Below are positions 1,487 to 64,000 of a stretch of DNA of 64,000 bases, piece by piece; position 1 is the stretch's first letter, and each line of letters begins with the position of its first letter. This DNA is from an uncultured delta proteobacterium (GTDB lineage Bacteria; Desulfobacterota; RBG-13-43-22). Made by a program: the position numbers and the translations under genes. Location: positions 320,001-384,000 of the forward strand of contig CAWJJC010000020.1 in the NCBI GenBank assembly GCA_963843145.1, written 5' to 3'. The notes beneath the pieces are model-generated. The model did no database searches, was not told the origin of the DNA, and saw nothing but the letters and a program-made list of their open reading frames with translations.

Positions 1487-1502
1487 TGGCACATTTCCTG
1501 CC
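1487..1502 (+). promoter_or_regulatory. sigma54 -24/-12 promoter of amtB2-glnK2
   Basis: TGGCACATTTCCTGCC, with GG(1488-89)-N10-GC(1500-01). Confidence 0.8.
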
Positions 1503-4016: not shown

Positions 4017-4032
4017 TGGCACAGGGATTGCT
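4017..4032 (+). promoter_or_regulatory. sigma54 promoter of glnB-glnD(-glnA)
   Basis: TGGCACAGGGATTGCT is a perfect TGGCAC-N5-TTGCW match; IHF-like TAACAATGGGCTA on the minus strand at 3976-3988. Confidence 0.9.
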
Positions 4033-4089
4033 TTTATAATAAATACCATTCCATAAATTCAATTAATCCAGACGCGTCCGGACAGGTAG

Positions 4090-4443
<354 letters not shown>

Positions 4444-4483
4444 TTTTGATCGACGGCCCTCAAAGAACTCCCTTATCAGGAAA

Positions 4484-14057: not shown

Positions 14058-14085
14058 CCAAAAATATTTGCAATATTTTTGGCTA
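14055..14085. repeat. 14-bp perfect inverted repeat starting at the metF stop codon
   Basis: TAGCCAAAAATATT-TGC-AATATTTTTGGCTA. Confidence 0.8.
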
Positions 14086-48038: not shown

Positions 48039-48159
48039 AAACAAAGGAATTAACATTATAATTTTCCGACTTCCGGTTCAAAGGGGATGAACTGGGCACT
48101 GGCACAACTGACTGCCAAGATAGCCGGGAAAGGGACAGACTGGCAATAAGATTTAGGAG

Positions 48160-49836
48160 TTAGGGCGTTTCCCAATCGCGAAAAGCTGTTAACACCTCTT
48201 CTGGGGTTTGGGCTGATTTGAGACCTTGCAGAAGCTGTCTGTTTTGGGCCGCTCGGCTGGTCAGACCTAACACCTTGACCTGAATATCGGGGGTTTGGGC
48301 CGGAGATAGGATCAAAAAAACTATCTCAACGGGTTTTTCAGTAAGGACATCGGAAACCCCTTTTCTGGTTAACCCCAGGGCTACTACCGGGGTCGTCAGG
48401 CCGTTGATCCGGGTGTGGGGGAAGGCCACCCCCTCATTAAAAAAGGTCGATCCCTGTTCTTCCCGCTTAAGGACCTCCTTCAATAAAATCTCCGGATCAC
48501 CGAGGCCATTCTGCTTGGCCAGAGCTTCCGTCAATTCGTGGAGAATAACCTCTTTTCCCACCGGCATATCCCAAATGATGATCTGGTGCGCTGATAGAAG
48601 TTGGGACAACCTCAACTGCTCCGGGGACGGGGGTTTGGTTTCGGAAGGGATCGAAACGGTCGTAGTCACTTCCGGGATCACCCCAGGGGGCTGAGCCTTG
48701 GGAGGGCCTTCTTCACTGGTGTCCAGAATGATAACTGTGATCCCCAAGGCTTTTTTGATCAGTTCGCCGACAATATCTTTATTCTTTCCGAATTTTTTAA
48801 AGAAAGGTTTGGCCCCCGGCCTTCCGATAATGATATGACCCACCCGGTATTCCTTGGCAAAACGGAGGATGGTATCGACGATCTCCTCTCCCTTATAGGT
48901 AAACACCAAGGCACCTAATTGCTTGGCCAAGGTCAAGGTGTCTGAGAGGTGACGCTGGGTTCGGACGTCGATGACCGTGGCTTCTTCGGAAGGGGTCTGA
49001 ACATAAACGGCATACCAGTTTCGATTCAGTTTCCCGGCTAAGCGCGAGGCATACCGGAGTAGTTTATCGCTATTGGGTCCACGCGAGCTCAAGCAGACCA
49101 TGATCTGGTCCGGCGTGATATCGCTTTCTTTTTCCTCCGTCTCCCGCCTCCTTGAATCAATCTGGGAGGCGAGTTCCCGAAGGGTGAGTTCCCGAAGCTT
49201 TTCCAGATTGGAAGTCCTGAAAAAATTACTGAGCGCGGTCTGGATACGCTCCCGGGGATAGATCTTTCCTTCTTCCAATCGTTTTTGTAAGTCTTCGGTG
49301 GACAAATCCACGTCAACGATCTGGTCGGCTTCCGCCAGGACCGAATCGGGAAGGCGCTCCCGGACTTTGACCCCTACGGCCTTTTCGACCATATCATAGA
49401 GACTTTCCAAATGTTGGACATTCAAAGTGGTGATGACATGGATCCCGACGGCCAGGATGTCCTGAACGTCCTGATAGCGTTTTTGGTTCAGGCTGCCGGG
49501 AACATTGGTATGAGCCAGTTCGTCGATAAGGGCCACCTGGGGTTTGCGGGCCAGAATGGCCTCCACATCCATTTCTTCTACCGGAACGCCGCGGTATTCC
49601 TGCCGGCGCCGGGGGATGACCTCCAGCCCTTCAATCAGTTTGGCGATATCGGCCCGGCCGTGGGTTTCCACGAGCCCGACGATCACATCGATCCCATCGT
49701 TTTTAAGCCGATGACCTTCCTGGAGCATCTGATAGGTCTTGCCCACCCCCGGGCAATAGCCCAGATAGACCTTCAACCGGCCACGCTGGGAGTGGCGGAT
49801 CATTCTCAAGAAGGCGTTGGCTCTATCGTCGCTCAT
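48160..49836 (-). CDS. KdpD N-terminal domain plus Usp plus PTS EIIA fusion, no kinase domain
   Basis: GRLKVYLGYCPGVGKTYQML, IDELAHTN, TTLNVQHLESL, LRELTLR; Usp IMVCLSS..IIIGRP; EIIA REEQGSTFFNEGVAFPHTR. Confidence 0.88.
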   Translation of the reverse strand: MSDDRANAFLRMIRHSQRGRLKVYLGYCPGVGKTYQMLQEGHRLKNDGIDVIVGLVETHGRADIAKLIEGLEVIPRRRQEYRGVPVEEMDVEAILARKPQVALIDELAHTNVPGSLNQKRYQDVQDILAVGIHVITTLNVQHLESLYDMVEKAVGVKVRERLPDSVLAEADQIVDVDLSTEDLQKRLEEGKIYPRERIQTALSNFFRTSNLEKLRELTLRELASQIDSRRRETEEKESDITPDQIMVCLSSRGPNSDKLLRYASRLAGKLNRNWYAVYVQTPSEEATVIDVRTQRHLSDTLTLAKQLGALVFTYKGEEIVDTILRFAKEYRVGHIIIGRPGAKPFFKKFGKNKDIVGELIKKALGITVIILDTSEEGPPKAQPPGVIPEVTTTVSIPSETKPPSPEQLRLSQLLSAHQIIIWDMPVGKEVILHELTEALAKQNGLGDPEILLKEVLKREEQGSTFFNEGVAFPHTRINGLTTPVVALGLTRKGVSDVLTEKPVEIVFLILSPAQTPDIQVKVLGLTSRAAQNRQLLQGLKSAQTPEEVLTAFRDWETP

Positions 49837-49846
49837 AAAGGACTTT

Positions 49847-51113
49847 TTATTTCAGTTCAACTGTCTTGGTTTTTTCGCATCCGGCCAGGCGTTCAACCTC
49901 CAATGACAAGGCCACTTGCTTGATCAATGATTCCAAAAGATTCAATTGCTCCGGGTGCCGGAAACGGTCACGATCTGCGGGCCGCAGGACCAAAACGCCC
50001 AAGGTGGAATCGACCGCTCGAATCGGCACATAGAGGTTCTCGGATGTTGGCGAGTGTTGAGTCCCCAACCCCGTTATCTGACCGGTGGTCATAGGCCAAA
50101 TGGGCTATCTTGAATTTCTTTGACAATATCCTGATGGAGCACGGAAGAGGGATCACCGGCAATCACCTTAAGCCTACCCTTGGCCGTTCGACACCAGGGC
50201 CACGGCACGGGCACTCGAAAATCTCCGAGAGATAGTGCACGGTCACTTGGAAGATTTTTTCTATTCCTCTGGTGCCGGCGAGGTGGCGGCTGAGACCATG
50301 CATGGCGGTGGCCTGCCGCTCCTGGTAATTGGGCAACTTGGGCCTGTTGCCGCAATCGGTTAGTCAGGTGACTGATGACCAAGGCCACCAGGAACATGAC
50401 GATGAAGGTAACGATATACTGGGCCTCTTCCACGGTGAATGAAAACCGCGGAGGGACAAAAAAGAAATCAAAACCCAGAACGCTTAAGAGGGAACTAAGG
50501 ATACCCGGACCTCTGTCCGCAGGAAGCGGCCGTTATCATCACGCCCAGCAAATAGATCATTATTAAGATTACTGAGGTGAAAGTAGGGGAACATTAAAAA
50601 ACAGAGCAAGGAAGCCAAGATAAAAATAAGAGGGCTGCTCCATAGTCGGCCAAAGGGATCTTTGGGGTCGAATCGTGTAGGTTTTCTCTCTCTGTTTCCC
50701 GGATTCACCGCTAAGAAGGTAAACATCCGTCTCTTCGCTCAATCGAATCAGTCTATCCACCGGACTCTTCAGGAGAGATCTTTTCCAAAGGCGCCACTCG
50801 GTTTTCCAGCGACAATCCTGGTGATCTTCCGTTGTTTAGCAAAGGCGATAATTTCTTCGGCAATATGGCGACCGGTCACTGTAACGGTCTCGGCCCCCCA
50901 TTGCTCGGCCAAACGCAGATTATCGGAGATACGGTTGCGCGCTTTTTCCAGAAGGGGCAGCGTCTTGGCCTCCTCGACAACTATTACAAACCATTGGGCC
51001 TTTAGATCAGCGGCCATTTTTCGGGCGGCATTTAGGAGTCCGGCGGAAGAAGGGCCCGATCCCAGGCACACCAAAATCCTTTCGGTCTGGGGTGTTACAG
51101 TGTCGTTCGCCAT
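49847..51113 (-). pseudogene. KdpD middle part (Usp, DUF4118 4-TM, GAF) without HisKA/HATPase; several frameshifts
   Basis: ERILVCLGSGPSS..ITRIVAGKP; shifted frames give FDFFFVPPRFSFTV, YIVTFIVMFLVALVISHLT and LYVPIRAVDSTLGVLVL..QVALSLEVERL. Confidence 0.75.
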
Positions 51114-51166
51114 TTGCCTTGTCCTATCCTGGTTTGAGGATTTTGCAACAACTCGTCACAATTTCA

Positions 51167-51751
51167 TCATTGGGTCAGGCGATCCAGAGCCAGATTCAAC
51201 ATCAGAACATTGACCCGGGGTTCACCGAAGATTCCCAGGTCCCGGCCTTCGGTGGCGTGTTCAATCTGCTTCAAAACGGTTTGATCTCCCACCCCCCGGG
51301 CTGCGGCTACACGGGATGCCTGCAGGATGGCGTTTTTCAAACCGATGTGCGGGTCCAGGCCGCTGGCCGAGGCGGTTACGGCATCGGCCGGGACCAAAAC
51401 ATCCGCAGAAAGTTTATTTTCAGCCCGGTATTGGCCCAGGCGTTCTTTAAGGCTATCGTTCAGCTTCTTGGAAAGGGGGCCGAGATTGCTGCCGCCGGAA
51501 CTGAGTCCATCATAGCCTTGCCCGGCGGCTGATGGACGGGGATGAAAGTATTTCGGATCGCTAAACCCCTGGGCGATCAGGCGCGACCCCCTGATCGTCT
51601 GTTTTTCCATGACCAAAGAACCATTGGCCTTATCCGGGAATAATCCCTGGGACAGAGCCCAGACCGCCAGGGGATAAAGACCGCAAACAATCACCGCCAG
51701 GGATAAGGTGGCCAGCAAGGCGATGCGAAGTTCGGCAATAATGTTTTTCAT
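51167..51751 (-). CDS. kdpC: K+-transporting ATPase subunit C
   Basis: ANGSL, YFHPRPSAAG, SGGSNLGP, ASASGLDPHI and VNVLMLNLALD. Confidence 0.95.
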   Translation of the reverse strand: MKNIIAELRIALLATLSLAVIVCGLYPLAVWALSQGLFPDKANGSLVMEKQTIRGSRLIAQGFSDPKYFHPRPSAAGQGYDGLSSGGSNLGPLSKKLNDSLKERLGQYRAENKLSADVLVPADAVTASASGLDPHIGLKNAILQASRVAAARGVGDQTVLKQIEHATEGRDLGIFGEPRVNVLMLNLALDRLTQ

Positions 51752-51784
51752 GGTTTCAAGCCTCTTAGAGTTTCAAATTTCATG

Positions 51785-51878
51785 GCTCAAGGCGCAAGGC
51801 AAAGAGCATAGAGCGTAGAGCCATGAGCTTATGGGTTTAAAGGTTTTCCTTTGAGCTTTCAGCTTTAGAGCTTTGAGC
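51785..51878. repeat. Two opposed arrays of degenerate 7-bp repeats between kdpB and kdpC
   Basis: GCTCAAG GCGCAAG GCAAAGA GCATAGA GCGTAGA GCCATGA GCTTATG, then CTTTGAG CTTTCAG CTTTAGAG CTTTGAG. Confidence 0.75.
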
Positions 51879-53899
51879 TACACTATGTGCAAGGCATTGA
51901 CAATCATATCGATCAGTTTAATACCCGGGAACGGTGCGATCAGACCGCCAAGGCCATAGATCAAAAGGTTACGCTTGAGAAGCACGGCGGCTCCTAAGGG
52001 TCGAAAACGTACCCCCCGCAAAGCCAAAGGGATGAGAGCGACAATGATCAAGGCATTGAAAATGACCGCGCTCAGAATCGCGCTTTGGGGGGACTGAAGG
52101 CCCATAACGTTAAGGGGAGAGATAACCGGAAAGACACTCATCAGCATGGCCGGGATGATGGCAAAGTATTTGGCCACATCATTGGCGATACTGAAGGTGG
52201 TTAAGGCCCCCCGGGTGATCAGCATCTGTTTGCCTATTTCAACCACCTCGATCAATTTGGTCGGGTTGGAATCCAGGTCCACCATATTGCCGGCCTCCTT
52301 GGCCGCCTGGGTCCCGGTGTTCATGGCCACCCCGACATCGGCCTGGGCCAGGGCCGGGGCGTCATTGGTGCCGTCGCCGGTCATGGCTACCAAATGACCG
52401 GCGGCCTGTTCCTTACGAATCAGGGCCAGCTTATCCTCCGGCTTGGCCTCGGCAATGAAATCATCCACCCCGGCCTCCCGGGCAATGGCCTCGGCCGTCA
52501 GCCGGTTGTCTCCGGTGACCATTACGGTTTTGATGCCCATGGCCCTGAATCGTTCGAAACGATCCTTCAGCCCGCCTTTGACAATATCCTTCAAGTGGAT
52601 GGCCCCGAGCACCTTCTCCCTATCGACGACCAGCAGGGGGGTCCCGCCGGAAAGGGAAATAGATTCCACGGCCTTTTGGATCTCCAAAGGAAGATCCGTC
52701 CCGGTAAAGGACTTCACGGCGTCTATGGCCCCTTTGCGGATCTGCCGTTCGTCCACATCCACTCCGCTCATTCTGGTCTGCGCCGAAAAGGTGATAAATT
52801 GGGCATGGGACATTTCAGAGATGGAACGTCCCCTTAAGCCATATTGTTTAGCCAGGACGACGATGCTCCGGCCTTCGGGCGTTTCGTCGGCTAATGAGGC
52901 TAATTGGGCCGCATCGGCCAATTCCTCGACCGTAATCCCCGGGGCCGGGAGAAAGGCAGTGGCCTGGCGGTCTCCCAAGGTAATGGTCCCTGTTTTATCT
53001 AAGAGCAGCACGTCGATATCTCCGGCGGCCTCGACGGCCCGGCCGCTCATGGCCAGGACATTTTTTTGGACCATCCGATCGATCCCGGCGATCCCGATAG
53101 CGCTGAGCAAACCTCCGATCGTGGTGGGGATCAGACAAACCAGCAAGGCCACCAGGACGGTTATGGAGAAGGCCACGCCCGAATAAAGACCGAAGGGCTT
53201 CAAGGTGATGCAGACTATCAAGAAAATGATGGTCAGGGCCGAGAGAAGAATCGTCAGGGCGATCTCGTTGGGGGTTTTCTGACGCTGGGCCCCCTCAACG
53301 AGCTGGATCATACGATCCAAAAAACTTTCCCCCGGGTTGGCGGTTACCAGAACCTTGATCTGGTCCGATAGAACCCGGGTGCCGCCGGTGACGGCGCTTC
53401 GATCGCCGCCGGCTTCGCGGATGACCGGAGCCGACTCCCCGGTGATGGCCGATTCGTCCACCGTAGCCACCCCGGCTATGATTTCGCCGTCAGAGGGGAT
53501 GATTTCCCCAGCCGACACCAGAACGAGGTCGCCCTTTCGCAGGCGGTCGGCTTCAATCTTCTCCGTCGAGTCATCGGATTTCAATCGATTGGCTAAGGTC
53601 TGGGTTCGTGTCTTGCGGAGGGCATTGGCCTGGGCCTTGCCCCGGCCTTCGGCCATGGCCTCGGCAAAATTGGCGAAAAGAACGGTAAACCAGAGCCAAA
53701 GGGTGACTTGCAGGATAAACCCGAAGGGGTCCTTCCCGGATCGCCAAAAGAGACCGATCGTGGTCAGGGCCGCCCCGACTTCGGTCACAAATATAACCGG
53801 ATTTTTCAACATTGAAACCGGATTGAGTTTTTTAAATGAATCGATTATCGCTTGTCCGATAATGGCCCGTTCAAAAAGGGAATGGGTTTTAGCCGCCAT
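51878..53899 (-). CDS. kdpB: K+-transporting P-type ATPase subunit B
   Basis: [30 protein letters not shown] and DVAKYF. Confidence 0.98.
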
Positions 53900-53913
53900 G
53901 ATTCTATGACCCC

Positions 53914-55717
53914 TTAAAAGAGAATTTTTGATCCCGTCATCAAAAAGTGTTCGACGACAGGACCCAAGGCCAGGGCCGGAAGAAAGGTCAAGGCCCCGAC
54001 GATTACGACCGTACCCACTAAGACGAGGGTAAAGGTCAAACCCCAGACGGGGAAGCTCCCTCCGGATGAGGGAACGAGTTTTTTCCCGGCCAGACTCCCG
54101 GCCAGGGCCATGACCGGCACCAGCATGATAAACCGTCCGAAAAGCATGCCCAAGCCCAGGGTGGTGTTGTACCAGGGGGTATTACCGCTCAGTCCGGCAA
54201 AGGCACTGCCGTTATTGCCGGTGGCCGAAGAGTAGGCATAGAGTATCTCACTCAACCCATGGGGGCCGCCGTTATTCAAGCCGGCCAATCCCCATTTACT
54301 GACCAGGGCCCAGGCCGAGAAGCCGAGGATGCTGAAGATCAAGATCATCAGGGCCAGAACGCTCACCTTCACGTCGTAGGGCTCTATCTTTTTACCGAGA
54401 TACTCGGGGGTTCGGCCAACCATCAGGCCGGTCAAGAATACGGCGAGGATGACAAAAATCAGCATCCCATACAGTCCCGCACCCACTCCCCCGAAAACGA
54501 CCTCGCCCAACTGGATATTAAAAAGGGGAATCAGTCCTCCGAGGGGGGTAAAGGAATCATGCATGGCATTGACGGCACCACAGGAGGCGCCCGTGGTGAT
54601 AGTGGCAAAAAGGGCCGAGTTGAAGATCCCGAAACGGACCTCTTTCCCTTCCATATTCCCGCTCACCGGGTCCAGGCCAAGGGCCTGCAGGCGCGGATTA
54701 CCGGCCGATTCCGCCCACCAGCAGACCAGGACGGCACTGAGGAAGAGGATGGTCATGGCGCTCCAGACGGCCCAACCATGCTTTTGATTTTTGACCATGC
54801 GGCCCAGATAATAGGTCAGGCCGCTGGGGATGAGAAAGATGGCCAGCATCTGAAAAAAATTGGATAAAGGGGTCGGGTTCTCATAAGGATGGGCGGCGTT
54901 GGCGTTGAAAAAACCGCCGCCGTTGGTCCCCAGCATCTTGATGGCCACCTGGGAGGCAACCGGACCCTGGGGAAGGGTCTGTTGTGTCCACCTTCTGATC
55001 GATCAGCACCGGGTTGCCCCGGGCATCCTTGATCTCCTGACCGCGGGCGTCCTTTTTAGGTACCTGGATGGTCATGGGTTCGATGAGCCTGGCCGAATCA
55101 TAGGCCTTAAAGTTCTGGATCATGCCCTGTGAGACTAAGAAGACGGCCAGTACCAGGCTGATCGGCAGCAGCAGATAAAGGTTCCCCCGTATTAAATCAA
55201 CCCAGAAGTTGCCGATTGTTTTGGCCGAATGTCGGGCAATGCCGCGTACCAGGGCCGCGGCTGCGGCCAGGCCCACGGCGGCTGAGGCGAAGTTATGAAA
55301 AACAAGACCCACCATCTGGGAGAAATAGGAGAGGGTTGATTCACCACCGTAATTTTGCCAATTGGTATTGGTGGTGAAACTGACCGCGGTATTGAAGGCC
55401 AGGTCGGCGGGAACCGGCCCGAAGCCTTGGGGGTTGAGGGGCAGTAGATGCTGGAGTCGAAGGATTACATAGGTAAACAATAGCCCGATCAGACTGAACA
55501 GGAGCAAAGAGAAGGTATAGCCTTTCCAGTCCTGCTCCTTTTTTGGGTCCAAACCCAAGAACCGGTACAATACCCGTTCTAAGGGTCTTAGAACCGGGTC
55601 CAGAAAGGTCTTGCCTTCGGCATCCATGACCTGAACCAGATATAGTCCTATGGGTTTAGTCAGTGCCAAAAGAATCAGCATAAAAAGGGTCAGTTGAATC
55701 CATCCGTAAAGATCCAT
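53914..55717 (-). CDS. kdpA: K+-transporting ATPase subunit A, one +1 frameshift at about 54982 (probably a sequence error)
   Basis: [22 protein letters not shown] and NNGSAFAG. Removing one A restores [17 protein letters not shown]. Confidence 0.9.
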
Positions 55718-55733
55718 CGATGTTATCCCTTCA

Positions 55734-55817
55734 TCAAAACTTTTCAGGCCGAAGAACGGTTATAAAGAGATAAACGATCAGGATCAGCCCGATAATCAAT
55801 CCAATAATATCCGACAT
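55734..55817 (-). CDS. kdpF: KdpF, 27 aa (below the ORF-track cutoff)
   Basis: MSDIIGLIIGLILIVYLFITVLRPEKF* carries the YL..LRPEKF signature. Confidence 0.9.
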   Translation of the reverse strand: MSDIIGLIIGLILIVYLFITVLRPEKF

Positions 55818-55818
55818 G

Positions 55819-55902
55819 TTAAAGCCTTTCACAGGCCCGCAGGTACAGGACACACAAGCCGAAAAAACCGATTGAAATTAAAATATAGATCATATCACTC
55901 AT
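55819..55902 (-). CDS. Second 27-aa single-TM micropeptide upstream of kdpF
   Basis: MSDMIYILISIGFFGLCVLYLRACERL*; ATGA overlap with the kinase stop, AAGGAGGA RBS, 1 nt gap to kdpF. Confidence 0.75.
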   Translation of the reverse strand: MSDMIYILISIGFFGLCVLYLRACERL

Positions 55903-57743
55903 GAATGATCCTCCTCCTTCGATAGATGATCCACCCTTTTCAGGGTAAAGATAAAGGTGCTCCCTTTCCCTTCCTGACTTTCTACATCCACGGTCCCCCC
56001 GTGGGCTTCGATAATCTCTTTGACAATAGACAAACCCAGTCCGGCCCCCGACTCTTTTTCCTGATCAGGAACACGAAAGAATTGTTCGAAGATCCTGGGG
56101 AGATATTGACTGGGAATTCCCTTCCCCGTATCGGTAACGGAAAAACGGACCTCCTTTTCTTCCGCTCTGGCTGAGAAGGTAATCATGCCGCCGGGCGGGG
56201 TGTATCTAAGGGCATTGGAAAGAAGATTGCCAAAGACATAATAGATCCTGGTCGGATCGGCCCAGACGTCGGGTAAGTCCCCGGGAATATCGACTTGTAA
56301 GGTCACCCCCTGGTCGTGGGATGCCCTCCAAAAAGGTTCCAGGGCTTCCATTTGCAGAGAATTCGGGGAAACCGCCTTAAATTCCATCCTGGTCTTGCCC
56401 GATTCAATACGGCTGATATCCAGGAGGCTATGGAGGATATTATGCAGCCGGTCGCTGTCTTCCCGGGCGGCCAAAAGTAGTTCGACCTGTTTTTCGGTAA
56501 GGTGTCCAACTTTTTCTTCCAGCAGGAGGTGGATGGCCATACGTATGGAGGTCAGAGGTGTTTTCAGTTGATGGGATACGGTCGAAATCATCCCTCTTTT
56601 TATCTCATCCTGCTGCCGGAGTTGGGTGACGTCCTGAAGGACCATCACCACCCCGGTGGGCTGTCTCTCCCGGTCGAGGATAGGAACCGCCTCCGGATGA
56701 AAATATCGTTCTTCCCCCTGGATGAAATGCTGAAAGACCCCTTGGCTGTTTTTTAGATTAACCGTACGGCCCTGCTTGATGGCCTCCTGATACAATTCCG
56801 CCATCCATCCAAAGGGCAAGGAGCTAAGGGAGATGTTCGGATGGAGTCCAAAGGAATTCCTGGCTGTTTCGGTGGCCACCTCTACCTTGCCCTCCAGGTC
56901 GATAACCGCTATCGCCTCCGGAAGGCTGTTGAAGGCCTGTTGTGTGGCCTGCTGGACCCGAATGAGGTGGGCCTGATCCGAGCGGCGAAACTCCCTGAGG
57001 CTGGTGGCCATGTCATTAAAGGCCTGGGAAAGATGACCGATTTCGTCCCGGGAAGAGCTTTGGACAACCAGATCCAGGTTTCCTTTTCGGATTTCATCGG
57101 TAGATTGGATCAGGCGGTTAATAGGGCGCAAGACCCATTTCCCGAAAAAAAATAAAAATCCTACGGCGATGATCATTCCCGCCAATAAAAGAAAAACCAT
57201 CTCCCTTTTAGCCGTAGCGGCACTCCGGCGGGCCCGATCATTGGCTTCGTGCATATTTTGCTGGTTCATTTGAAGGATTTCGTTGGCGATCCCTTTAATA
57301 TGGTCGAACAAAGGAAGGAGTTCGTTAAAATAAGTCTGACGACGATGATCGATTGAAAGGGGACTACCCACTACATCCTTAAGGGAGCTTTTGTATTGAT
57401 TGTAATTCTTTTGCAGCAGCGCAGCCTTTTCACCTTCACCGGGAAGGGTGATATTGTTCAATTCCACCTGAAGGGCCTTTTCAAAGGCCTTTTCATTGAT
57501 ACGAATCTGTTCGTCGCCTTTTTGGGTGTATCCTTGAAGCGAAAAAAGGATTCCGCTGTCAATACGTTCCAGGGCTTCTTTGATCTCCTGACAGGCGATG
57601 ACACTCCGGTAATTCTCACGGAGGATGACATCGATGGAATCTCCCAATCGGCTAAGTTGAATGATACTCTGGATTCCGATTAATAAAATGATAATCAGCA
57701 ACCCGCCGAAGCCGAGAGATATTTTTTGGCGAAGACCTAACAC
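55899..57743 (-). CDS. Membrane sensor kinase (four-helix periplasmic, HAMP, PAS, HisKA, HATPase), KinB-like
   Basis: ILRENYRSV, SRDEIGHL, VSHQLKTPLTSI, NLLSNALRYT and GAGLGLSI. GTG start at 57743 after AAGGAAGGA. Confidence 0.9.
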   Translation of the reverse strand: MLGLRQKISLGFGGLLIIILLIGIQSIIQLSRLGDSIDVILRENYRSVIACQEIKEALERIDSGILFSLQGYTQKGDEQIRINEKAFEKALQVELNNITLPGEGEKAALLQKNYNQYKSSLKDVVGSPLSIDHRRQTYFNELLPLFDHIKGIANEILQMNQQNMHEANDRARRSAATAKREMVFLLLAGMIIAVGFLFFFGKWVLRPINRLIQSTDEIRKGNLDLVVQSSSRDEIGHLSQAFNDMATSLREFRRSDQAHLIRVQQATQQAFNSLPEAIAVIDLEGKVEVATETARNSFGLHPNISLSSLPFGWMAELYQEAIKQGRTVNLKNSQGVFQHFIQGEERYFHPEAVPILDRERQPTGVVMVLQDVTQLRQQDEIKRGMISTVSHQLKTPLTSIRMAIHLLLEEKVGHLTEKQVELLLAAREDSDRLHNILHSLLDISRIESGKTRMEFKAVSPNSLQMEALEPFWRASHDQGVTLQVDIPGDLPDVWADPTRIYYVFGNLLSNALRYTPPGGMITFSARAEEKEVRFSVTDTGKGIPSQYLPRIFEQFFRVPDQEKESGAGLGLSIVKEIIEAHGGTVDVESQEGKGSTFIFTLKRVDHLSKEEDHS

Positions 57744-57778
57744 GGCAATCCTTCCTTGGTTAATGTTCTTTTCAACAT

Positions 57779-57795
57779 AGCAAATGCCAGGCCAA
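57779..57795 (-). promoter_or_regulatory. sigma54 promoter for the kinase-kdp operon
   Basis: Minus strand TTGGCCTGGCATTTGCT (GG-N10-GC); IHF-like TTACAATAAGTTA at 57809-57821; repeated TTTGCAAGA at 57837 and 57897. Confidence 0.75.
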
Positions 57796-57983
57796 GTCAT
57801 TCTCGATCTAACTTATTGTAAGAAATAGATTTTTATTTGCAAGAACGAATTGCGACCTTGCATTTCCCAAGAAAACAGGTGAAAAGCTTATTGAAATTTG
57901 CAAGACGGATGCGGAGAAGGTCAGCGTGAACCGTCAGGCAGTCCGGTCGTTGTGCGGGTGGGCAAAAATCAGGGCGAGTGTTC

Positions 57984-59324
57984 TTAGATCCCGTACTTCT
58001 TGCGGCGGCGCCAGAGGGTGGCCTGATCGATGCCCAGAATGTCGGCCGCTTCTTGCAGTGATCGGGGGGTGGCCAGGATTCTGCGGATGTGCAGTTCTTC
58101 GATTTTTTCCAGGGTAAGGGAGTCACCTATTTTGGGCGGGGATTCATGGGGATTGAGATTTTGGGGGAAACACTCGACGCCGACGTGACCGGTTTGACAA
58201 AGGATGGCCGTCCGCTCGATGAGATTGCTTAACTCCCTGACGTTTCCCGGCCAGGAGTATTGTTTAAGTCCCTTCAAGGCTTCCTCGGTAAAGCCGGCAA
58301 AGACCCGGTGATTGTTCCGGCCATAAAAAGCCAATAATTTTTCGGCGAGTATGGTGATATCATCCGGTCGTTCCCGCAAGGGGGGGATTTCGATCGGAAT
58401 CACGTTAAGCCGGAAAAAGAGATCTTCCCGGAACCGCCCCTCTTGCACCGCCTTTTCCAAATCCACGTGGGTAGCCGTTATCAGACGCACATCGCCCTTT
58501 CGGGTGACGGTATCTCCGACCCGTTCATATTCCCTTCCCTGGACGAAGCGCAACAGCTTGGGTTGTACGGCCAGGGGCAAATCACCGATCTCGTCGAGAA
58601 AGAGGGTTCCGCCCTCGCAAGCGGCCACCCGGCCCGGGTTGTCCCGAACGGCCCCGGTAAAAGCCCCCTTGACATGCCCGAAGAGTTCGCTCTCCAGCAA
58701 TTCCGCAGAAAAAGTGGGACAGGAAATAATGCCCAGCGGTTTGGCCGCCCGCCTGCTCCAGGAGTGAATCATTCGGGCCAGAACGGTCTTGCCGGTTCCG
58801 CTTTCTCCGCGTATAAGGATGGTGGCTTCGGACGGGGCCGCCTGGCGGGCCAGATTGATGGCCCGTTGCATAACCGGGGAAGTGCTGGAAAATTCCGTCT
58901 CCGGATGGGATCTGCCCAGGTCTTCCTGCAAAGCGGCGACCCTTTGCTCCAAGGCCCGCAGCTCAATCATTTTTTGAACGGCCAGTTTTACTTGGGCCGG
59001 GGTGAACGGTTTAGGAAGGTAATCGGTGGCCCCCCGCCGCATGGCCTCGACGGCCGTATCGATGGAGGCGTAGGCCGTAATGACGACAATCTTGAGCCAG
59101 GGCGTTTGCGCCAGTAAGGCCGGAATCAGATCCAAACCGTTTTCCGTGCCGAGGCGCAGGTCTACCAGGGCCAGTTCAAAAGACCTCCGTGCGGTCTCCG
59201 TTAAGGCATCCTGAAAATTGCTGACGGCCAAAACCTTGTGCCCTTCGGTCTCGAGGCAGACCGCTAGGGTCTTGCGAATGGTGACTTCATCATCCACTAT
59301 CAGGATATTCAAGGCCGGCTTCAT
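57984..59324 (-). CDS. sigma54-dependent response regulator (NtrC family, AlgB-like)
   Basis: REC (LVDLRLG), GESGTGKT, ELFGHVKGAFTGA, FLDEIG, WPGNVREL and Fis HTH. Confidence 0.95.
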   Translation of the reverse strand: MKPALNILIVDDEVTIRKTLAVCLETEGHKVLAVSNFQDALTETARRSFELALVDLRLGTENGLDLIPALLAQTPWLKIVVITAYASIDTAVEAMRRGATDYLPKPFTPAQVKLAVQKMIELRALEQRVAALQEDLGRSHPETEFSSTSPVMQRAINLARQAAPSEATILIRGESGTGKTVLARMIHSWSRRAAKPLGIISCPTFSAELLESELFGHVKGAFTGAVRDNPGRVAACEGGTLFLDEIGDLPLAVQPKLLRFVQGREYERVGDTVTRKGDVRLITATHVDLEKAVQEGRFREDLFFRLNVIPIEIPPLRERPDDITILAEKLLAFYGRNNHRVFAGFTEEALKGLKQYSWPGNVRELSNLIERTAILCQTGHVGVECFPQNLNPHESPPKIGDSLTLEKIEELHIRRILATPRSLQEAADILGIDQATLWRRRKKYGI

Positions 59325-59390
59325 GGAGTCTTTTCCCTTTTACGAAAAATAATCTTTGCAATAAAAAGCAAATTATTATCAGGTAGTTAA

Positions 59391-60318
59391 TTAACGGGTG
59401 GCTTTGAATTCCCGGGCCTTTACGGCTTCCTCCAGGCTGACTAAGATCTCACCGCACTGGGCGCTTATTTTTCTTTTCCTTCCGAGGGATAGTTCGAAGG
59501 ATTTGATATTGGTATTCTGGCGGGATAGATCGATCACTTGGGTGGTTACTTTCTCCAACGCATTGAAGGCGGTCTTGGCTTCCTGGTAGGCCTCCTGCTT
59601 CCCCGGACCAACCAGGCCCTTCAAGGTTTTCAGAGACTCGTTAATCTCCTGCTCGTGCTGTTTGATGGACGCTTCGATTTTATCCATCCGCTGATCATCG
59701 GTTGCGGCGATATGCGGGGCCTGGAGATAATGAATTTTTAACCCGGCGGTCAAGGCCCGGCAAGCCAGGTTAGGGATACGGGCGTCCGCCTGGCTGTCCG
59801 GTTGGATCGAAATCAAGCTGTTTAGTGCTTTTTCAAAACGGTTCACCGCCTCCTCGGCCGGTCCGAAAGATAGACGAGCGGCCTTGAGATTTGTGTTTTT
59901 AACGGCAAAATCGAGAAGTTCCCGATCCGATTTTTCGAAACTCCGCCCAGCAGCCGTCGAACTCCTGCAACAGCTTCAATTCCTGATTGGAATGATCCTT
60001 ATCCATCAGCAGGCCGATTGCTCGACGGTCCCGCTCCACCAAATCCGCAGCCTTCAGGGATTGGTCGGCGAAGGTTTTCGATTCTTCGTCGGTATCCGCC
60101 ATAACGGCACTCTTTTCGGCCTCAACGGATCGGAGGAGGTTGATCTGCATCCGCGACAAGATGTCCAGTTTTTTGGACAGGATGCCGACCACGTCTTTCA
60201 AATCCAGATCAGATCCCTGACAGCTCAAAATCAGCAGCAAGACCGGCATTAAAAGGATCAACCGATGAAATCCAAACCTTTTAAAACGACTGGACAATAA
60301 AAAAGAAATTATTCTCAT
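59391..60318 (-). CDS. Putative lipoprotein with MCP-type four-helix bundles, frameshifted at about 59927
   Basis: LLLILSC lipobox-like and AEKSAVMADTDEES. Removing one G joins RKIDRELLDFAVKNTNLKAA to the 59391-59846 ORF. Confidence 0.65.
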
Positions 60319-62219
60319 ATTGGACCCCTCTTTACGGAATTTCCTCTGTTCTCTACGGCCTCGGGTTCCTGACGGGCCGCAACGGATTTCTGGCTATAGG
60401 TGATATCAAACGCAAATTGGGGAAAGAGCCGCGGCAGCCGCATCAGGTTAAAGACCATCACTCCGATCGAAAAACGGTCCAGCCAGGAGGAGAGTGGCCA
60501 GCCGAAGTGGACGTAAACTCGCCGGTGGGGAAATTCATATTCCACCACTTTTAAGATACTCACCATGCGGTGATAAAGGCTGATCCGGGTCAGCGGGAAA
60601 AGAAAGTGATTTTCCGCCTCCTTGGGAGGGGCCCCGGCCCGGGGGGAATAGAAGGTCAGGTAGGCCGCGTTTTTTCGGACCGGCCCCCCTTCTTTTTCCG
60701 TACGCCTGAAAAACAAATGGATCTCCGGGTCGTCCTCCTGGGAAAGGAAAAGAATCATGGCCATTTCATTGTCGGCCTTGGCGATTTCCTTCAGTTCCGG
60801 CGCCCGGCGCCGGGCCACCAGAAACCCGGCCAGGAGCACTCCGCCGGTGACCGAAGCCCAGAGGGTGGTGCCGTGGGGTTTGTCAATGGCCAGAAAGATG
60901 AAGCAACTGACCATGATCACCCAGATGATCAGGGTGCCCAGCCGGCTGGTATTATAAGAAATAACCTCTTTAGTCCCCTTCAGGTAACGGTAAATGATCA
61001 AGGCCCCCATGTTGATGCAGAAACTGGCCACCAGGCCGATGGCGTACATGTCGGCCAGGATCATCTGGCTGCCGGAAGTAATGAAGATGATCGTGGAAAA
61101 CAGGGAGGCGTTGATCAAGTGGATCCGATACAGGGAACTGCGACGGTTGGTCTTAATCAGCCAGAGAAAGCCGTACCGGTGGGCGATGCGCTCGATGAGT
61201 TCGCTCGAGGCCACAAAGGCGGTGTTGACGGCCATGATCAGGGTGAAGCTGGCCAGAGAGGCCACGGCAACCCCAAAGGGTACCCCGTTGATCAAAGTGG
61301 CGTAATGGGTAATTAAATCCCCCTCGTGGGCCTTAAAATCGATAGGGGCCGATAGGGCCAGGGCCGCTACCAGGGGGGTGACGATGCCCACGGTCAAGGC
61401 CAGAAAGATATAAGAACGGCGAATCTCCCGCCAATTCTTGACCAGCCCGGCGGTTTGCAGGACGGATTCCACACCCGAATAGGCCAGGATACAGAAGGCC
61501 ACGCTGGAGATGAAATGGTCATAGCTGGTAACGACGGAACCTCGGTACAAGGTAGAAAACCCGTCACCCAGGGAGGTCTGCATTCGATTAAATGAGGGGA
61601 GATCCAGCGATAGTATCCCCGAGGTTATTAAATTCAGGAAGACGAAGGCGGCCAACACGAAAATCATGAAGGTAAAACGGGCATTCTCCTTGATCCCCAG
61701 GATGTTCAACCCGGCCATGGCCCAGAGGATGGCCAGCACCAGCATGATCCGCAGGGGCTCGGACTGGGCCAGGGCCGGGAAGAAAGAAACACTGTTCAAA
61801 ACCGCACTGACCGAGGAGATGCAGGCGGTCAGGATATAATCGACCATGATGGAGGCCACGGCCACAAAGGAGATCGAGGGGCCAAGAACGAGGTAAGAAA
61901 ATGAATAGACGCCGCCGCCTATCAGGCCGTGATGTTCGAGGATTTCAGCGATTTCGACCAGACGGGTGGAGAGAAACCGGATCAACAGGGAGGTGACGGC
62001 AATGAAGAAAATGGCGCTCAAACCGATAAAGCGATAGGCCTCGGCAGGAGCATAAAAAACCGAGGTGAGTTCGTCCATCAGGGTGATGACCCCGACCGCC
62101 AGAAAGGTCAGCCAGACCCGGCCCCCTTGGTTGAAGGAAAGGAGGTTCCGCTGCCGAAATAGTTTGATAAATATGAGCAGCAGGCCGATATTCAAAAAAG
62201 CGAGAAAAAGAGTCTTCAA
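60315..62219 (-). CDS. APC-fold permease, KimA/KUP-like putative K+ symporter
   Basis: DELTSVFY, GGGVY, VDYILT, NILGIKE, SGVESV, NTAF and YAIG parallel the KimA motifs as I recall them. Confidence 0.75.
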   Translation of the reverse strand: MKTLFLAFLNIGLLLIFIKLFRQRNLLSFNQGGRVWLTFLAVGVITLMDELTSVFYAPAEAYRFIGLSAIFFIAVTSLLIRFLSTRLVEIAEILEHHGLIGGGVYSFSYLVLGPSISFVAVASIMVDYILTACISSVSAVLNSVSFFPALAQSEPLRIMLVLAILWAMAGLNILGIKENARFTFMIFVLAAFVFLNLITSGILSLDLPSFNRMQTSLGDGFSTLYRGSVVTSYDHFISSVAFCILAYSGVESVLQTAGLVKNWREIRRSYIFLALTVGIVTPLVAALALSAPIDFKAHEGDLITHYATLINGVPFGVAVASLASFTLIMAVNTAFVASSELIERIAHRYGFLWLIKTNRRSSLYRIHLINASLFSTIIFITSGSQMILADMYAIGLVASFCINMGALIIYRYLKGTKEVISYNTSRLGTLIIWVIMVSCFIFLAIDKPHGTTLWASVTGGVLLAGFLVARRRAPELKEIAKADNEMAMILFLSQEDDPEIHLFFRRTEKEGGPVRKNAAYLTFYSPRAGAPPKEAENHFLFPLTRISLYHRMVSILKVVEYEFPHRRVYVHFGWPLSSWLDRFSIGVMVFNLMRLPRLFPQFAFDITYSQKSVAARQEPEAVENRGNSVKRGPI

Positions 62220-62298
62220 AACAAACTTCCTTCGGATACCCTAAGGATTATTTTACCCAGGTATTGTTTCAAGGTTCGGATTTCAGGGTTCGAACTAG

Positions 62299-62982
62299 TT
62301 ACGGCTTTTCTCCGCCTTCCCCCAGGTCGATCGGGCCCAGTTGGCGGCGGGCGGTGATCCTTTCCAAATTGCCCCCGGCCGGCTGGTAGGTGGGATCGAT
62401 CTCCAGGGCCGCCCGGTAAAACCGCTGGGCCTCCAACCGGTCATGCCGAATCTCCAATAGCGCCCCGAACAGGTTATAGGCCTCGGGCCGGGCCGGATCG
62501 GCAGCGACGGCCCGGCGGGCGATTTCACCGGCGGTTTCAAAATCCCCCTCCCGGATATAGTGGCGGATTCGTTCGATCAAGGCCCAATAGTCGGCCGGCT
62601 TACTCCCTTCCATGTCCCGGCGTTCCAAGACCTTGGCCACCAGTCCCCGGATTTCGCCCGGACTGAAGGGTTTACGGATAAAATCCACGGCCCCTAGTTT
62701 CATGGCCTCGACGGCGTATTCAATGCTCCCATGGGCCGTGATCATAATCACCTGTATTTCAGGCCGGGATTCCCGGATGCGGCGCAGGACTTCCAGCCCA
62801 TCCATTCCCGGCAGCTTCAGATCAAGGAGTACCAGACTGAAATCGGACTCCTGAAGCTTTTGCAGGGCTTCTTCTCCATCGCCGGCAGTCTGGACCGGCA
62901 TCCCCAGGGTATCCAGGGTTTGAGACAAGGTCAGACGAATATTCTTTTCGTCATCCACCACCAGAATTTTTTTCATTTTCAT
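62299..62982 (-). CDS. Response regulator REC plus TPR-like domain, no DNA-binding domain
   Basis: ILVVDDEKN, LLDLKLPGMDG, KPF; TPR PEAYNLFGALLE..YRAALEIDPTY. Confidence 0.85.
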   Translation of the reverse strand: MKMKKILVVDDEKNIRLTLSQTLDTLGMPVQTAGDGEEALQKLQESDFSLVLLDLKLPGMDGLEVLRRIRESRPEIQVIMITAHGSIEYAVEAMKLGAVDFIRKPFSPGEIRGLVAKVLERRDMEGSKPADYWALIERIRHYIREGDFETAGEIARRAVAADPARPEAYNLFGALLEIRHDRLEAQRFYRAALEIDPTYQPAGGNLERITARRQLGPIDLGEGGEKP

Positions 62983-64000
62983 CCCCCTTTTCCTCCGTGG
63001 CCGCCGGCAGGGTAAAAGAAAAGGTGCTCCCCTGGCCGGGGGCGGATTCCACCCAGATGGATCCCCCATGGGCCCGAACGATTTCCTTGCAGATAGCCAG
63101 CCCCAAACCGGTGCCGCCGGCTTCCCGTCCCTTAAGCTGCACGAATTTCTTAAAAATCCGGGCTTGGTCTTCCCAGGGAATCCCCGGGCCATCATCTTGG
63201 ACGGACATTTGTACCTGGGCGCCAAGCCGTTTGGCCCTTAGGTGAATATGGCCGTTCTCGCCGACATAGCGCAGGGCATTGGAAACCAAGTTCGTCAGGA
63301 CCCAAGTGATTTTGTTGGCGTCGGCCCTGATTCGCGGCGCGTCTTCCAACAGGTCCATGGTTAGGGAGACCGGCTTCATTTCCAATTGCCCTTTGAAAAT
63401 GGTCTGAATTTGACTAAAAATATCCGCCAGCGCCACGTTTTCAAATTCCAGAGTAATCTTCCCGGCCTCGATCTTGGATAAATCCAGCAGGTCCTGCACC
63501 AGGGCTTTCAGGCGTTGGACCTCCTCGTGGGCCACCTGGAGCAGTTCCTGATCCCGGGGGGGGAGGTCTCCGGAGGTCTGTTCCAAGAGGAGGTCGATGC
63601 TCATGCTCAGGCTAGTGAGCGGGGTATACAGTTCATGGGAGGCCGCCATGACGAATTCGCTTTTGAGCCGTTCCACTTCCTTAAGACGGGTGACGTCCCG
63701 GAGCAGTAGGACGATCCCGGAGAGGCCTCGCTCCCGTCCCCCGATGGTTGTTACGGAGAAAAGCACATGACGCGGTCCCTGGTTTTGAGGAAGGGAAACG
63801 ATCCGTTCTTCCTCGGGCCCAGGCGGCGGAACTCCGGATTCGATCGTCTGGCGGACCAAGTCGCAGATCGGGGTCTGGGGGAAGACTTCAGAGCAATTCT
63901 TTCCCAAAACCTCGACAGCTTCCAGATCCAGCATCCGGCGGGCGGCCGGGTTGATGCCCGTCACCCGGAGTGCGGTATCAAAAACCACCAGGCCGTCCTC
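62951..64000 (-). CDS. PAS sensor histidine kinase, KinB-like, 5'-truncated by the window edge
   Basis: ASHELYTPLTS, NLVSNALRY, DDGPGI and GTGLGLAI. Confidence 0.9.
   Translation of the reverse strand, partial: EDGLVVFDTALRVTGINPAARRMLDLEAVEVLGKNCSEVFPQTPICDLVRQTIESGVPPPGPEEERIVSLPQNQGPRHVLFSVTTIGGRERGLSGIVLLLRDVTRLKEVERLKSEFVMAASHELYTPLTSLSMSIDLLLEQTSGDLPPRDQELLQVAHEEVQRLKALVQDLLDLSKIEAGKITLEFENVALADIFSQIQTIFKGQLEMKPVSLTMDLLEDAPRIRADANKITWVLTNLVSNALRYVGENGHIHLRAKRLGAQVQMSVQDDGPGIPWEDQARIFKKFVQLKGREAGGTGLGLAICKEIVRAHGGSIWVESAPGQGSTFSFTLPAATEEKGDENEKNSGGG

Follow-up and report, generated by a model that had tools for sequence, protein, structure and literature searches.

A kdp locus of an uncultured delta proteobacterium with putative sigma54 control and a kinase-less KdpD fused to an EIIA-like domain

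Described kdp systems and the present locus

The regulation of Kdp is a textbook case of two-component control. We analysed a 64,000-nucleotide (nt) stretch of contig CAWJJC010000020.1 from an uncultured delta proteobacterium (hereafter the window), near the end of which kdpFABC is accompanied by a sigma54-type activator gene, a separate histidine kinase gene (HK2) and two KdpD-like genes, one of them encoding a fusion of the KdpD N-terminal domain to Usp and EIIA domains (KdpD_N-Usp-EIIA). The comparison with described systems draws on excerpts of the publications cited. In Desulfovibrio vulgaris, the sigma54 response regulator DVU3334 was mapped to its own operon, DVU3334-3339, with a site, CGTTACATTTTGTAACG, at -149 of kdpF; DVU3336, which combines a K+ sensor domain with UspA, and DVU3335 were described as the two parts of a split kinase, and two further regulators bind the kdp promoter (Rajeev et al. 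2011, PMC3333781). A later table gives DVU3334 as an activator of potassium uptake with the GAFTGA motif (Kazakov et al. 2015, PMC4641369). The N-terminal domain of KdpD is itself an atypical serine kinase, which phosphorylates Ser162 of KdpB and inhibits the pump; forms with only the KdpD and Usp domains, and forms truncated of DHp/CA, predominate in species without KdpE, the short KdpD/Usp forms phosphorylate KdpB, and that of Deinococcus geothermalis (DgKdpD) is stimulated by c-di-AMP (Silberberg et al. 2024, PMC11018627). The same paper tabulates D. vulgaris and Syntrophobacter fumaroxidans as 'KdpD domain, Usp domain', with no KdpE. A 2026 review (PMC13104625) reports that PtsN binds KdpD in four species and that the rhizobial kdpDE cluster contains a ptsN2 gene and, by the title of one of its references, Escherichia coli PtsN binds the transmitter domain of KdpD.

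The locus is closest to the D. vulgaris operon, and its closest protein class is that of the short KdpD/Usp serine kinases. As in DVU3334-DVU3339.1, kdpFABC is encoded together with a GAFTGA activator of the NtrC type, a separate histidine kinase (the sensory-box kinase DVU3335 in D. vulgaris) and a KdpD/Usp protein that is kinase-less, KdpE is missing (here within the window), and a palindromic activator site, putative in our case, lies 5' of the operon. The order differs: D. vulgaris has kdpFABC, KdpD/Usp, kinase and activator in one operon, whereas here the activator gene is upstream and the kinase gene comes first. The EIIA C-terminal domain is a second difference, the D. vulgaris and S. 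fumaroxidans proteins having none in the sequences given in the supplement of PMC11018627. Pseudomonas KinB/AlgB is also alike in that a membrane kinase with HAMP, PAS and HisKA domains is paired with an NtrC-family sigma54 activator, but the name is automatic only (KinB is the JGI/KEGG label of HK2 and its relatives) and the target here is kdp, not alginate. The original prediction, made from the letters of the DNA, had put the island forward as an undescribed system; this does not stand, as the same logic was mapped experimentally in D. vulgaris (PMC3333781; PMC4641369, as excerpted). The locus appears to be a known design, a kdp operon run by sigma54 and an enhancer-binding protein with a kinase-less KdpD, in which the EIIA fusion, a small peptide and a KdpD middle fragment are apparent novelties, rather than a new kind of system.

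Domains were called with Pfam in 51 open reading frames (ORFs) of the window, with NCBIfam as a second profile set. The ORF listing and Pfam agree with the predicted gene list and order, all on the minus strand, to which our coordinates refer unless stated otherwise: a first histidine kinase (HK1), REC-TPR, a KimA-like permease, a four-helix lipoprotein, the activator, HK2, a micropeptide, kdpFABC, Usp-TM-GAF (TM, transmembrane) and KdpD_N-Usp-EIIA. A canonical pair, that is a KdpD with DHp/CA and an adjacent OmpR-type KdpE, is lacking at the locus. Pfam found no HisKA or HATPase in either KdpD-like gene, and no OmpR-type regulator (Trans_reg_C) in the 51 ORFs scanned across the window, so the predicted absence of kdpE holds for the window. 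The place of kdpDE is taken, again as predicted, by sigma54 signalling: an NtrC-type activator, a conserved promoter with repeats, and a kinase that is not KdpD.

The conserved core and its upstream region

A scan of genome contigs with HK2 returned 66 loci, 29 of which (L001 to L029 where named) hold a near-full-length or contig-end-cut orthologue (55-99% identity); the other 37 gave domain-level kinase matches only, and the window proteins were mapped on the 29. Most of these relatives are uncultured Thermodesulfobacteriota, among them Smithellaceae and Deferrimicrobium. All 22 HK2 loci whose sequence reaches that point encode KdpD_N-Usp-EIIA (in the remaining 7 the contig stops earlier), 21 of these 22 have kdpFABC adjacent, and an activator orthologue lies upstream in 22/29, two loci (L024, L025) having less than 1 kb of upstream sequence. 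The arrangement varies: HK2 and KdpD_N-Usp-EIIA are neighbours in L011, L012, L013, L027 and L029 (overlapping in L011), followed by a more divergent kdpFABC. Judged by sequence conservation, the core consists of the activator, an upstream activating sequence with a sigma54 promoter, HK2, a 27-residue peptide, kdpFABC and KdpD_N-Usp-EIIA. It is narrower than the set originally proposed: the comparison of cassettes upheld the linkage of HK2, kdpFABC and KdpD_N-Usp-EIIA, and did not uphold that of HK1/REC-TPR, the permease and the lipoprotein. Taken as a whole, we somewhat favour one conserved device, with a transcriptional and a post-translational arm, plus neighbours.

HK2 (55899..57743) is a protein of 614 residues with, by Pfam, a periplasmic 4HB_MCP domain, HAMP, PAS, HisKA (H391) and HATPase; it has no NCBIfam equivalog above cut-off. 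Its gene heads the putative operon, and one kinase does lie inside the operon it would control, as had been predicted. The activator (57984..59324) is a sigma54 enhancer-binding response regulator (REC, AAA+, HTH_8) with GESGTGK at 173, GAFTGA at 220 and VDLRL at residues 54-58 of REC, where D55 is assumed to be the phospho-acceptor; its best NCBIfam matches, AtoC and NtrC, are both below their cut-offs. The predicted micropeptide is real, and it is conserved: the hydrophobic 27-residue peptide MSDMIYILISIGFFGLCVLYLRACERL (55819..55902), whose ATG overlaps the HK2 stop, to which it is translationally coupled, lies just 5' of kdpF, follows the consensus M.D.IY....FGLC.L....CERL, and recurs in 19/27 loci, divergent kdp operons included (L002-L007, L008, L011-L017, L022, L024, L025, L027, L029). 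It matches no Pfam or NCBIfam family and appears to be new.

The pump genes follow: kdpF (55734..55817, 27 residues; TIGR02115, 29.2 bits, above cut-off), kdpA (53914..55717) in two ORFs of 278 and 344 residues matching Pfam profile positions 2-211 and 219-548, intact kdpB (51878..53899, 673 residues, DKTGT at 301) and intact kdpC (51167..51751, 194 residues, by Pfam). The TGES motif of KdpB (153-156) retains the Ser equivalent to the KdpD target in E. coli. Successive genes from HK2 through KdpD_N-Usp-EIIA have short gaps between them or overlap, a spacing that fits a putative single operon. The non-coding spacer between kdpB and kdpC (51752..51877) is 126 nt long, and about 200-230 nt in L001 and L006. 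Porin genes occur in or beside the kdp cassette of some relatives, one of the TorF family in L004 (9081..9914) and BBP2/OmpL-like ones in L001 (8296..9645) and L011 (19987..21294).

Upstream of HK2 lies a putative upstream activating sequence (57832..57904), conserved in the alignment and composed of the repeats CTTGCAAATTTC (57904..57893), GGGAAATGCAAG (inverted, 57868..57857) and CTTGCAAATAAA (57843..57832). A conserved A/T-rich block, TTACAATAAGTTA (57821..57809), separates the repeats from a sigma54-type -24/-12 element, TGGCCTGGCATTTGC (57794..57780), which is 37 nt 5' of the HK2 start. The block may be an IHF-like site or, alternatively, the -10 part of a sigma70-like TTGCAA-16-TACAAT. 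The -24/-12 element falls within the longest HK2 ORF, yet 5' of the start used in the database form; since that form begins at GTG 57743, the element is upstream of the gene and not inside it. Within the window by itself the sigma54 pattern is no more frequent than chance (45 matches with at most 2 mismatches, 50 expected); its support comes from conservation across loci. We took 26 segments, one per locus, running from the end of the activator gene to the next gene (n=18) or covering about 300 nt 5' of HK2 (n=8), and scored the GG-N10-GC element out of 11, the expectation being drawn from both strands of all 29 loci. A score of at least 9 was reached in 21/26 segments (21 hits, 1.08 expected) and of at least 8 in 24/26, which supports, at the level of sequence, the sigma54 promoter predicted between activator and second kinase. 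Across an alignment of 10 upstream regions GG...TTGC is invariant, and the inverted repeats and the A/T-rich block are also kept. The activator repeat motif has no copy near other genes of the island or the window, the permease, HK1 and activator genes included; the window search gave only loose matches, at 14073 and 5431. A porin gene stands between the sigma54 element and HK2 in L004.

From homology, gene order and these conserved DNA elements we infer the following transcriptional arm. The four-helix-bundle domain of HK2 would sense a periplasmic or membrane signal, and HK2 would then phosphorylate the NtrC-type activator, which would bind the CTTGCAAAT-type inverted repeats and open the sigma54 promoter. 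This promoter would drive HK2, the 27-residue peptide, kdpFABC, (Usp-TM-GAF) and KdpD_N-Usp-EIIA as one operon and, HK2 being the first gene, induction would raise the level of HK2 itself. We regard control of the operon by sigma54 and the activator as highly probable on this evidence.

The KdpD_N-Usp-EIIA fusion and its predicted role

KdpD_N-Usp-EIIA (48160..49836) is intact, with 558 residues that comprise a KdpD N-terminal domain, Usp, a proline-rich linker and an EIIA(Ntr)-like domain of the phosphotransferase system (PTS). The first domain matches PF02702 (E=3.1e-93, profile positions 1-210) and the structure 2r8r in PDB (E=3.6e-66). Its Walker A (G26-X5-G32K33T34) and Walker B (D105E106) motifs are invariant in 17/17 orthologues (60-97% identity), and invariant Arg residues (R186, R197) were seen in the region of Arg190, which with Trp39 makes up the adenine-binding pair of E. 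coli KdpD, without alignment to the E. coli numbering. The C-terminal domain matches PF00359 (PTS_EIIA_2) with 69.3 bits against a cut-off of 27, its four best PDB matches are all PtsN, and His474, which aligns with His73 of E. coli PtsN (1a6j), is likewise invariant in the 17 orthologues. The domain is below the PtsN equivalog (TIGR01419, 49.6 against 138.7 bits), the fructose EIIA model scoring slightly higher (55.3), and it is a fused C-terminal domain, not a stand-alone protein of about 160 residues.

The fusion is not confined to this genome. All of the best 120 relatives (72-95% identity) carry PF02702 and PF00359, and many of them sit on contigs equal in length to those of HK2 relatives, in line with the linkage of the two genes; in a library clustered at 50% identity, 12 of the best 150 representatives match nearly the full query and 11 of these 12 have both Pfam domains, so that the architecture occurs in at least 11 clusters at 50% identity. 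Two proteins of about 750 residues (P0249, P0258) have two tandem KdpD-Usp modules, Pfam KdpD and Usp being found twice in each. No description of a KdpD-EIIA fusion was found in the open-access papers searched, including the excerpted PMC11018627 with its supplementary files and the excerpted PMC13104625, and an EIIA fused to a kinase-less KdpD appears to be previously undescribed. As far as sequence comparison goes, the protein is evidently under strong constraint and not a remnant. The original prediction described both KdpD pieces as without a kinase domain; this is right for the histidine-kinase module, but it overlooks that KdpD_N is an atypical serine kinase (PMC11018627, as excerpted), whose Walker motifs are invariant here.

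By analogy with the described proteins, KdpD_N-Usp-EIIA is best read as a candidate serine kinase for KdpB that stands alone and has a new input domain. It shares with DgKdpD and the NF038185 proteins a Walker A G-X5-GKT, a Walker B DE and a following Usp, the lack of TM, GAF and DHp/CA, and the occurrence in genomes or loci without kdpE. It differs from them by a proline-rich linker of about 40 residues and the added PTS_EIIA_2 domain, as well as by a sub-cut-off NF038185 score; the regulator of DgKdpD is c-di-AMP. The other parallel is E. coli KdpD/KdpE with free PtsN, and rhizobial ptsN2, where an EIIA(Ntr)-type protein is also tied to KdpD and K+ uptake and the phospho-acceptor His is kept. 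Here, however, the EIIA is covalently fused to the N-terminal half of KdpD, the histidine-kinase half and KdpE are missing, and so is the transmitter domain that PtsN targets in E. coli, according to the reference title mentioned above.

The post-translational arm that we propose extends the E. coli and D. geothermalis experiments to this locus. The soluble KdpD_N-Usp-EIIA would phosphorylate the TGES Ser of KdpB and so shut the pump when K+ is sufficient. Its input would probably not be K+ but rather the state of EIIA, through phosphorylation of His474 by an NPr-like protein, a ligand of Usp, or both. The serine-kinase role seems to us the better bet of the possible functions, while control through His474 is a more tentative proposal. 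Bolder, and rather doubtful, is the suggestion that a PTS(Ntr)-type phosphorelay acts via His474 directly on the serine kinase that switches KdpB, and that the same protein may tune HK2, so that carbon and nitrogen status would be coupled to both the transcriptional and the post-translational control of K+ uptake. In this bolder reading the 27-residue peptide would be another membrane partner, so far undescribed, of the pump or of HK2.

Several observations weigh against the two-armed explanation, in which every biochemical step at this locus is a prediction. The Pfam match to Usp is sub-threshold (20.7 against 24 bits), the match to NF038185 ('KdpD-like non-kinase potassium sensor') reaches 368.9 of the required 550 bits over residues 7-370, and GKT is followed by Tyr35 (by Phe in one sequence), where E. 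coli has Trp39. The window contains no PTS-Ntr genes (EI, NPr) and no rpoN; without EI and NPr there, the phosphoryl donor for His474 is hypothetical. On the side of transcription, five loci (L001, L006, L008, L011, L013) have no activator gene within 9-10 kb 5' of HK2, L001 has a 2-nt gap within the -24 element, and the sigma70-like hexamers TTGCAA-16-TACAAT (57842..57815) lie in the same spacer, overlapping the last repeat and the A/T-rich block. The repeats also differ from the DVU3334 site, and the likeness to DVU3334 and DVU3335 described here is one of domain content. Finally, a frameshift in kdpA, if real, may mean that the pump is dead in this organism.

The same protein could act in another way, mainly as a cytoplasmic scaffold or co-sensor, binding HK2 and adjusting its balance of kinase and phosphatase, as free PtsN does with E. 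coli KdpD, with phosphorylation of KdpB minor or nil. Rajeev et al. read DVU3336 and DVU3335 as one split kinase, binding of PtsN to KdpD is documented (PMC13104625; both sources as excerpted), and HK2 and KdpD_N-Usp-EIIA occur together in all 22 informative loci, adjacent or overlapping even where kdpFABC comes after both (L011, L021, L027, L029). A mere scaffold would not need the invariant serine-kinase motifs, however, and the HK2 transmitter is not KdpD-like beyond the general family. A complex prediction for the HK2 DHp-CA region (378-614) with the EIIA domain (405-558) scored 0.00, which gives no verdict and is evidence neither way. We hold a predominantly scaffolding function to be unlikely, although it can coexist with the serine-kinase function that we prefer.

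Frame breaks, other drivers and flanking genes

The second KdpD-like gene, Usp-DUF4118(TM)-GAF (49847..51113), is broken, as seen from its Pfam pieces and from comparison with orthologues: it is in at least 4 ORF pieces in the window, with 10 single-base indels (3 deletions, 7 insertions) relative to the four intact orthologues (L001, L003, L004, L006; open frames of 421-444 codons). It is found in 5/29 loci, those of the closest relatives, and the version in L008 is a 285-codon frame without Usp. The L004 orthologue matches positions 251-652 of the 895 of the E. coli KdpD model, that is the middle third of KdpD, without KdpD_N and without DHp/CA. From its domain content it looks like a further-reduced, DHp/CA-less KdpD, and such a middle fragment appears to be new. 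We rejected the simple reading of the two pieces as halves of a single KdpD: both contain a Usp of their own, the matches to the model overlap (about 12-376 and 251-652) and the gene order is reversed. A longer protein of 708 residues, KdpD-Usp-DUF4118-GAF without HisKA/HATPase, is encoded after kdpC in L029 (19570..21693) besides KdpD_N-Usp-EIIA, giving two kinase-less KdpD forms in one locus. Two more genes of the island are split, each by a 1-nt insertion: kdpA within 54997..54981 (near 54989) and the lipoprotein gene within 59937..59922 (near 59930).

Such breaks could mean that the kdp locus is being lost, with real frameshifts in kdpA, the lipoprotein gene and Usp-TM-GAF, and a pump and part of its control that no longer function. 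Single-base indels number 12 over 16 kb; one 1.27-kb gene holds 10 of them and the rest of the island 2, a distribution that a uniform error rate does not explain. In the first 48 kb, none of 35 ORFs was noticed to be split. The shortened Usp-TM-GAF of L008, and its absence from most relatives, point the same way. Set against this, every indel is 1 nt long, and Usp-TM-GAF, read without them, contains no premature stop. No relaxed selection was detected in this gene by codon positions or by the ratio of nonsynonymous to synonymous rates (dN/dS): window-specific changes fall 24/12/22 on the three codon positions, near the pattern of the relatives, and dN/dS against the four relatives is 0.205-0.271, with 0.21-0.27 among the intact relatives themselves. 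The nearest relative switches at the indel at 50114, as in a mixed-strain consensus, and related metagenome-assembled loci (L003, L004, L012, L027, L029) have single-base breaks of their own in conserved genes. The genes kdpB, kdpC, HK2, the activator and KdpD_N-Usp-EIIA are all intact. On balance we lean clearly towards consensus or assembly error, and consider genuine decay of the locus improbable. The caveat that the KdpD pieces might be decaying remnants thus has a divided outcome: KdpD_N-Usp-EIIA is constrained and no remnant, while Usp-TM-GAF, which the original prediction counted as part of the signalling network, is frame-broken in the window and missing from most relatives.

It is very unlikely, in our judgement, that kdpFABC is driven mainly by a canonical kdpDE elsewhere in the genome or by a sigma70 promoter in the spacer, to which the sigma54 element would merely add. 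The sigma70-like hexamers upstream of HK2 would suit such a driver, two further regulators act on the D. vulgaris kdp promoter (PMC3333781, as excerpted), and some relatives have more KdpD-like sequence after kdpC, namely the 708-residue protein of L029 and second KdpD_N matches in L011, L012 and L027. But sigma70-like matches in the island are not above shuffles (14 against 9.1, standard deviation 3.0), the -35 part is not conserved in 4/9 aligned relatives, and the L029 protein likewise lacks DHp/CA. No OmpR-type regulator was found in the window or in the translated ORFs scanned from eight related loci, and species with a kinase-less KdpD are mostly without KdpE, according to the excerpted PMC11018627.

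Beyond the activator gene lie four genes that we treat as neighbours of the conserved core. The permease (60315..62219, 634 residues; Pfam and PDB search) is a candidate KimA-like K+/H+ symporter of the APC/KUP type. Its sole PDB match is KimA (6s3k, E=3.6e-8, residues 29-414), its C-terminal domain being unmatched. KimA residues D36, Y43, D117, T121, S125, E233 and Y377 are all kept, and T230 is replaced by Ser; in the HMMER alignment with 6s3k the counterparts of D36, Y43, T121, Y377, E233 and D117 are, in this order, D49, Y56, T131, the Tyr of DMYAIG, E251 and D127. In KimA the K+ site is formed by D36, Y43, T121 and Y377, E233 is the proton site and D117 is regulatory (PMC6994465, as excerpted). 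The permease thus shares the APC fold and the seven named K+/H+ residues with Bacillus subtilis KimA, but it is distant from it and no c-di-AMP riboswitch accompanies it: an Rfam scan of 47000..64000 (E up to 1) gave one chance match to a long non-coding RNA and no c-di-AMP or other riboswitch. A terminator scan was uninformative (17 found, 24.5 expected). The 4HB_MCP_1 four-helix-bundle lipoprotein (59391..60318, about 300 residues, lipobox LILSC; Pfam) has a start that overlaps the permease stop by 4 nt, and L007 has an intact orthologue of 310 residues. By the Atlas search its family comprises 4HB proteins that stand alone and are most frequent in Thermodesulfobacteriota. Paralogy of the lipoprotein with the HK2 sensor was considered and discarded, as BLASTP of the intact orthologue against HK2 shows no similarity (E=0.46). 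Permease and lipoprotein genes occur in 3/29 loci (L004, and in opposite orientation L005 and L007); they are only loosely linked to the cassette and form a putative second K+ uptake unit nearby.

HK1 (62951..>64000; PAS-HisKA-HATPase by Pfam) has its 5' end beyond the window and is a paralogue of HK2 (37% identity over 336 residues by BLASTP). The REC-TPR protein (62299..62982, start MKMKKILVVDD; Pfam) is a single-domain response regulator whose gene overlaps the HK1 stop by 32 nt. Among the 29 loci no true relative of the pair was found other than remnants in L004: there, 4045..4444 corresponds to 62577..63120 of the window, with a deletion of about 420 nt through which the C-terminal half of REC-TPR is joined to the HK1 end, and unrelated genes lie upstream. 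The deletion makes the pair dispensable in that locus. HK1 and REC-TPR form an unrelated two-component pair that adjoins the cassette without being conserved with it.

The integrated K+ network of the original prediction, in which HK1, REC-TPR, the lipoprotein, the activator, HK2 and the two KdpD pieces share control among some six proteins, has in its favour the single strand with short gaps, the paralogy of the two kinases, the K+ theme lent to the island by the KimA residues of the permease, and the presence of permease and lipoprotein beside the cassette in L004, L005 and L007, but we find it most improbable, given that the closest relative, L004 (93-95% DNA identity), retains HK1/REC-TPR as remnants only and the other 28 loci lack it, that permease and lipoprotein are found in three loci only and inverted in two, that neither the repeat motif nor a sigma54 element lies 5' of permease and lipoprotein, and that the lipoprotein does not resemble the HK2 sensor.

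The first 48 kb of the window carry nitrogen-control and housekeeping genes in long intact ORFs. The nitrogen-control cluster includes amtB-glnK twice, glnD, glnA, glnE and parts of glutamate synthase. Near-perfect sigma54 consensus sites lie on the plus strand at 1487..1501 (TGGCACATTTCCTGC, 57 nt 5' of an amtB gene) and at 4017..4031 (TGGCACAGGGATTGC, 5' of a glnD-like gene), which suggests that the organism uses sigma54 in the usual way.

The locus is further evidence that KdpDE has been exchanged, in a large group of anaerobes, for another kinase and a sigma54 activator, with the serine-kinase half of KdpD alone retained. The fusion offers a concrete construct for studying how the KdpB serine kinase is regulated where TM and GAF domains for sensing K+ are missing. 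If the phosphorelay suggested above were true, the fusion would serve as a Rosetta stone, predicting for proteobacteria an action of free PtsN on the N-terminal half of KdpD, the serine kinase. More generally, it hints that the link between PTS-Ntr and Kdp, which in proteobacteria is known only from contacts between proteins, can be hard-wired.

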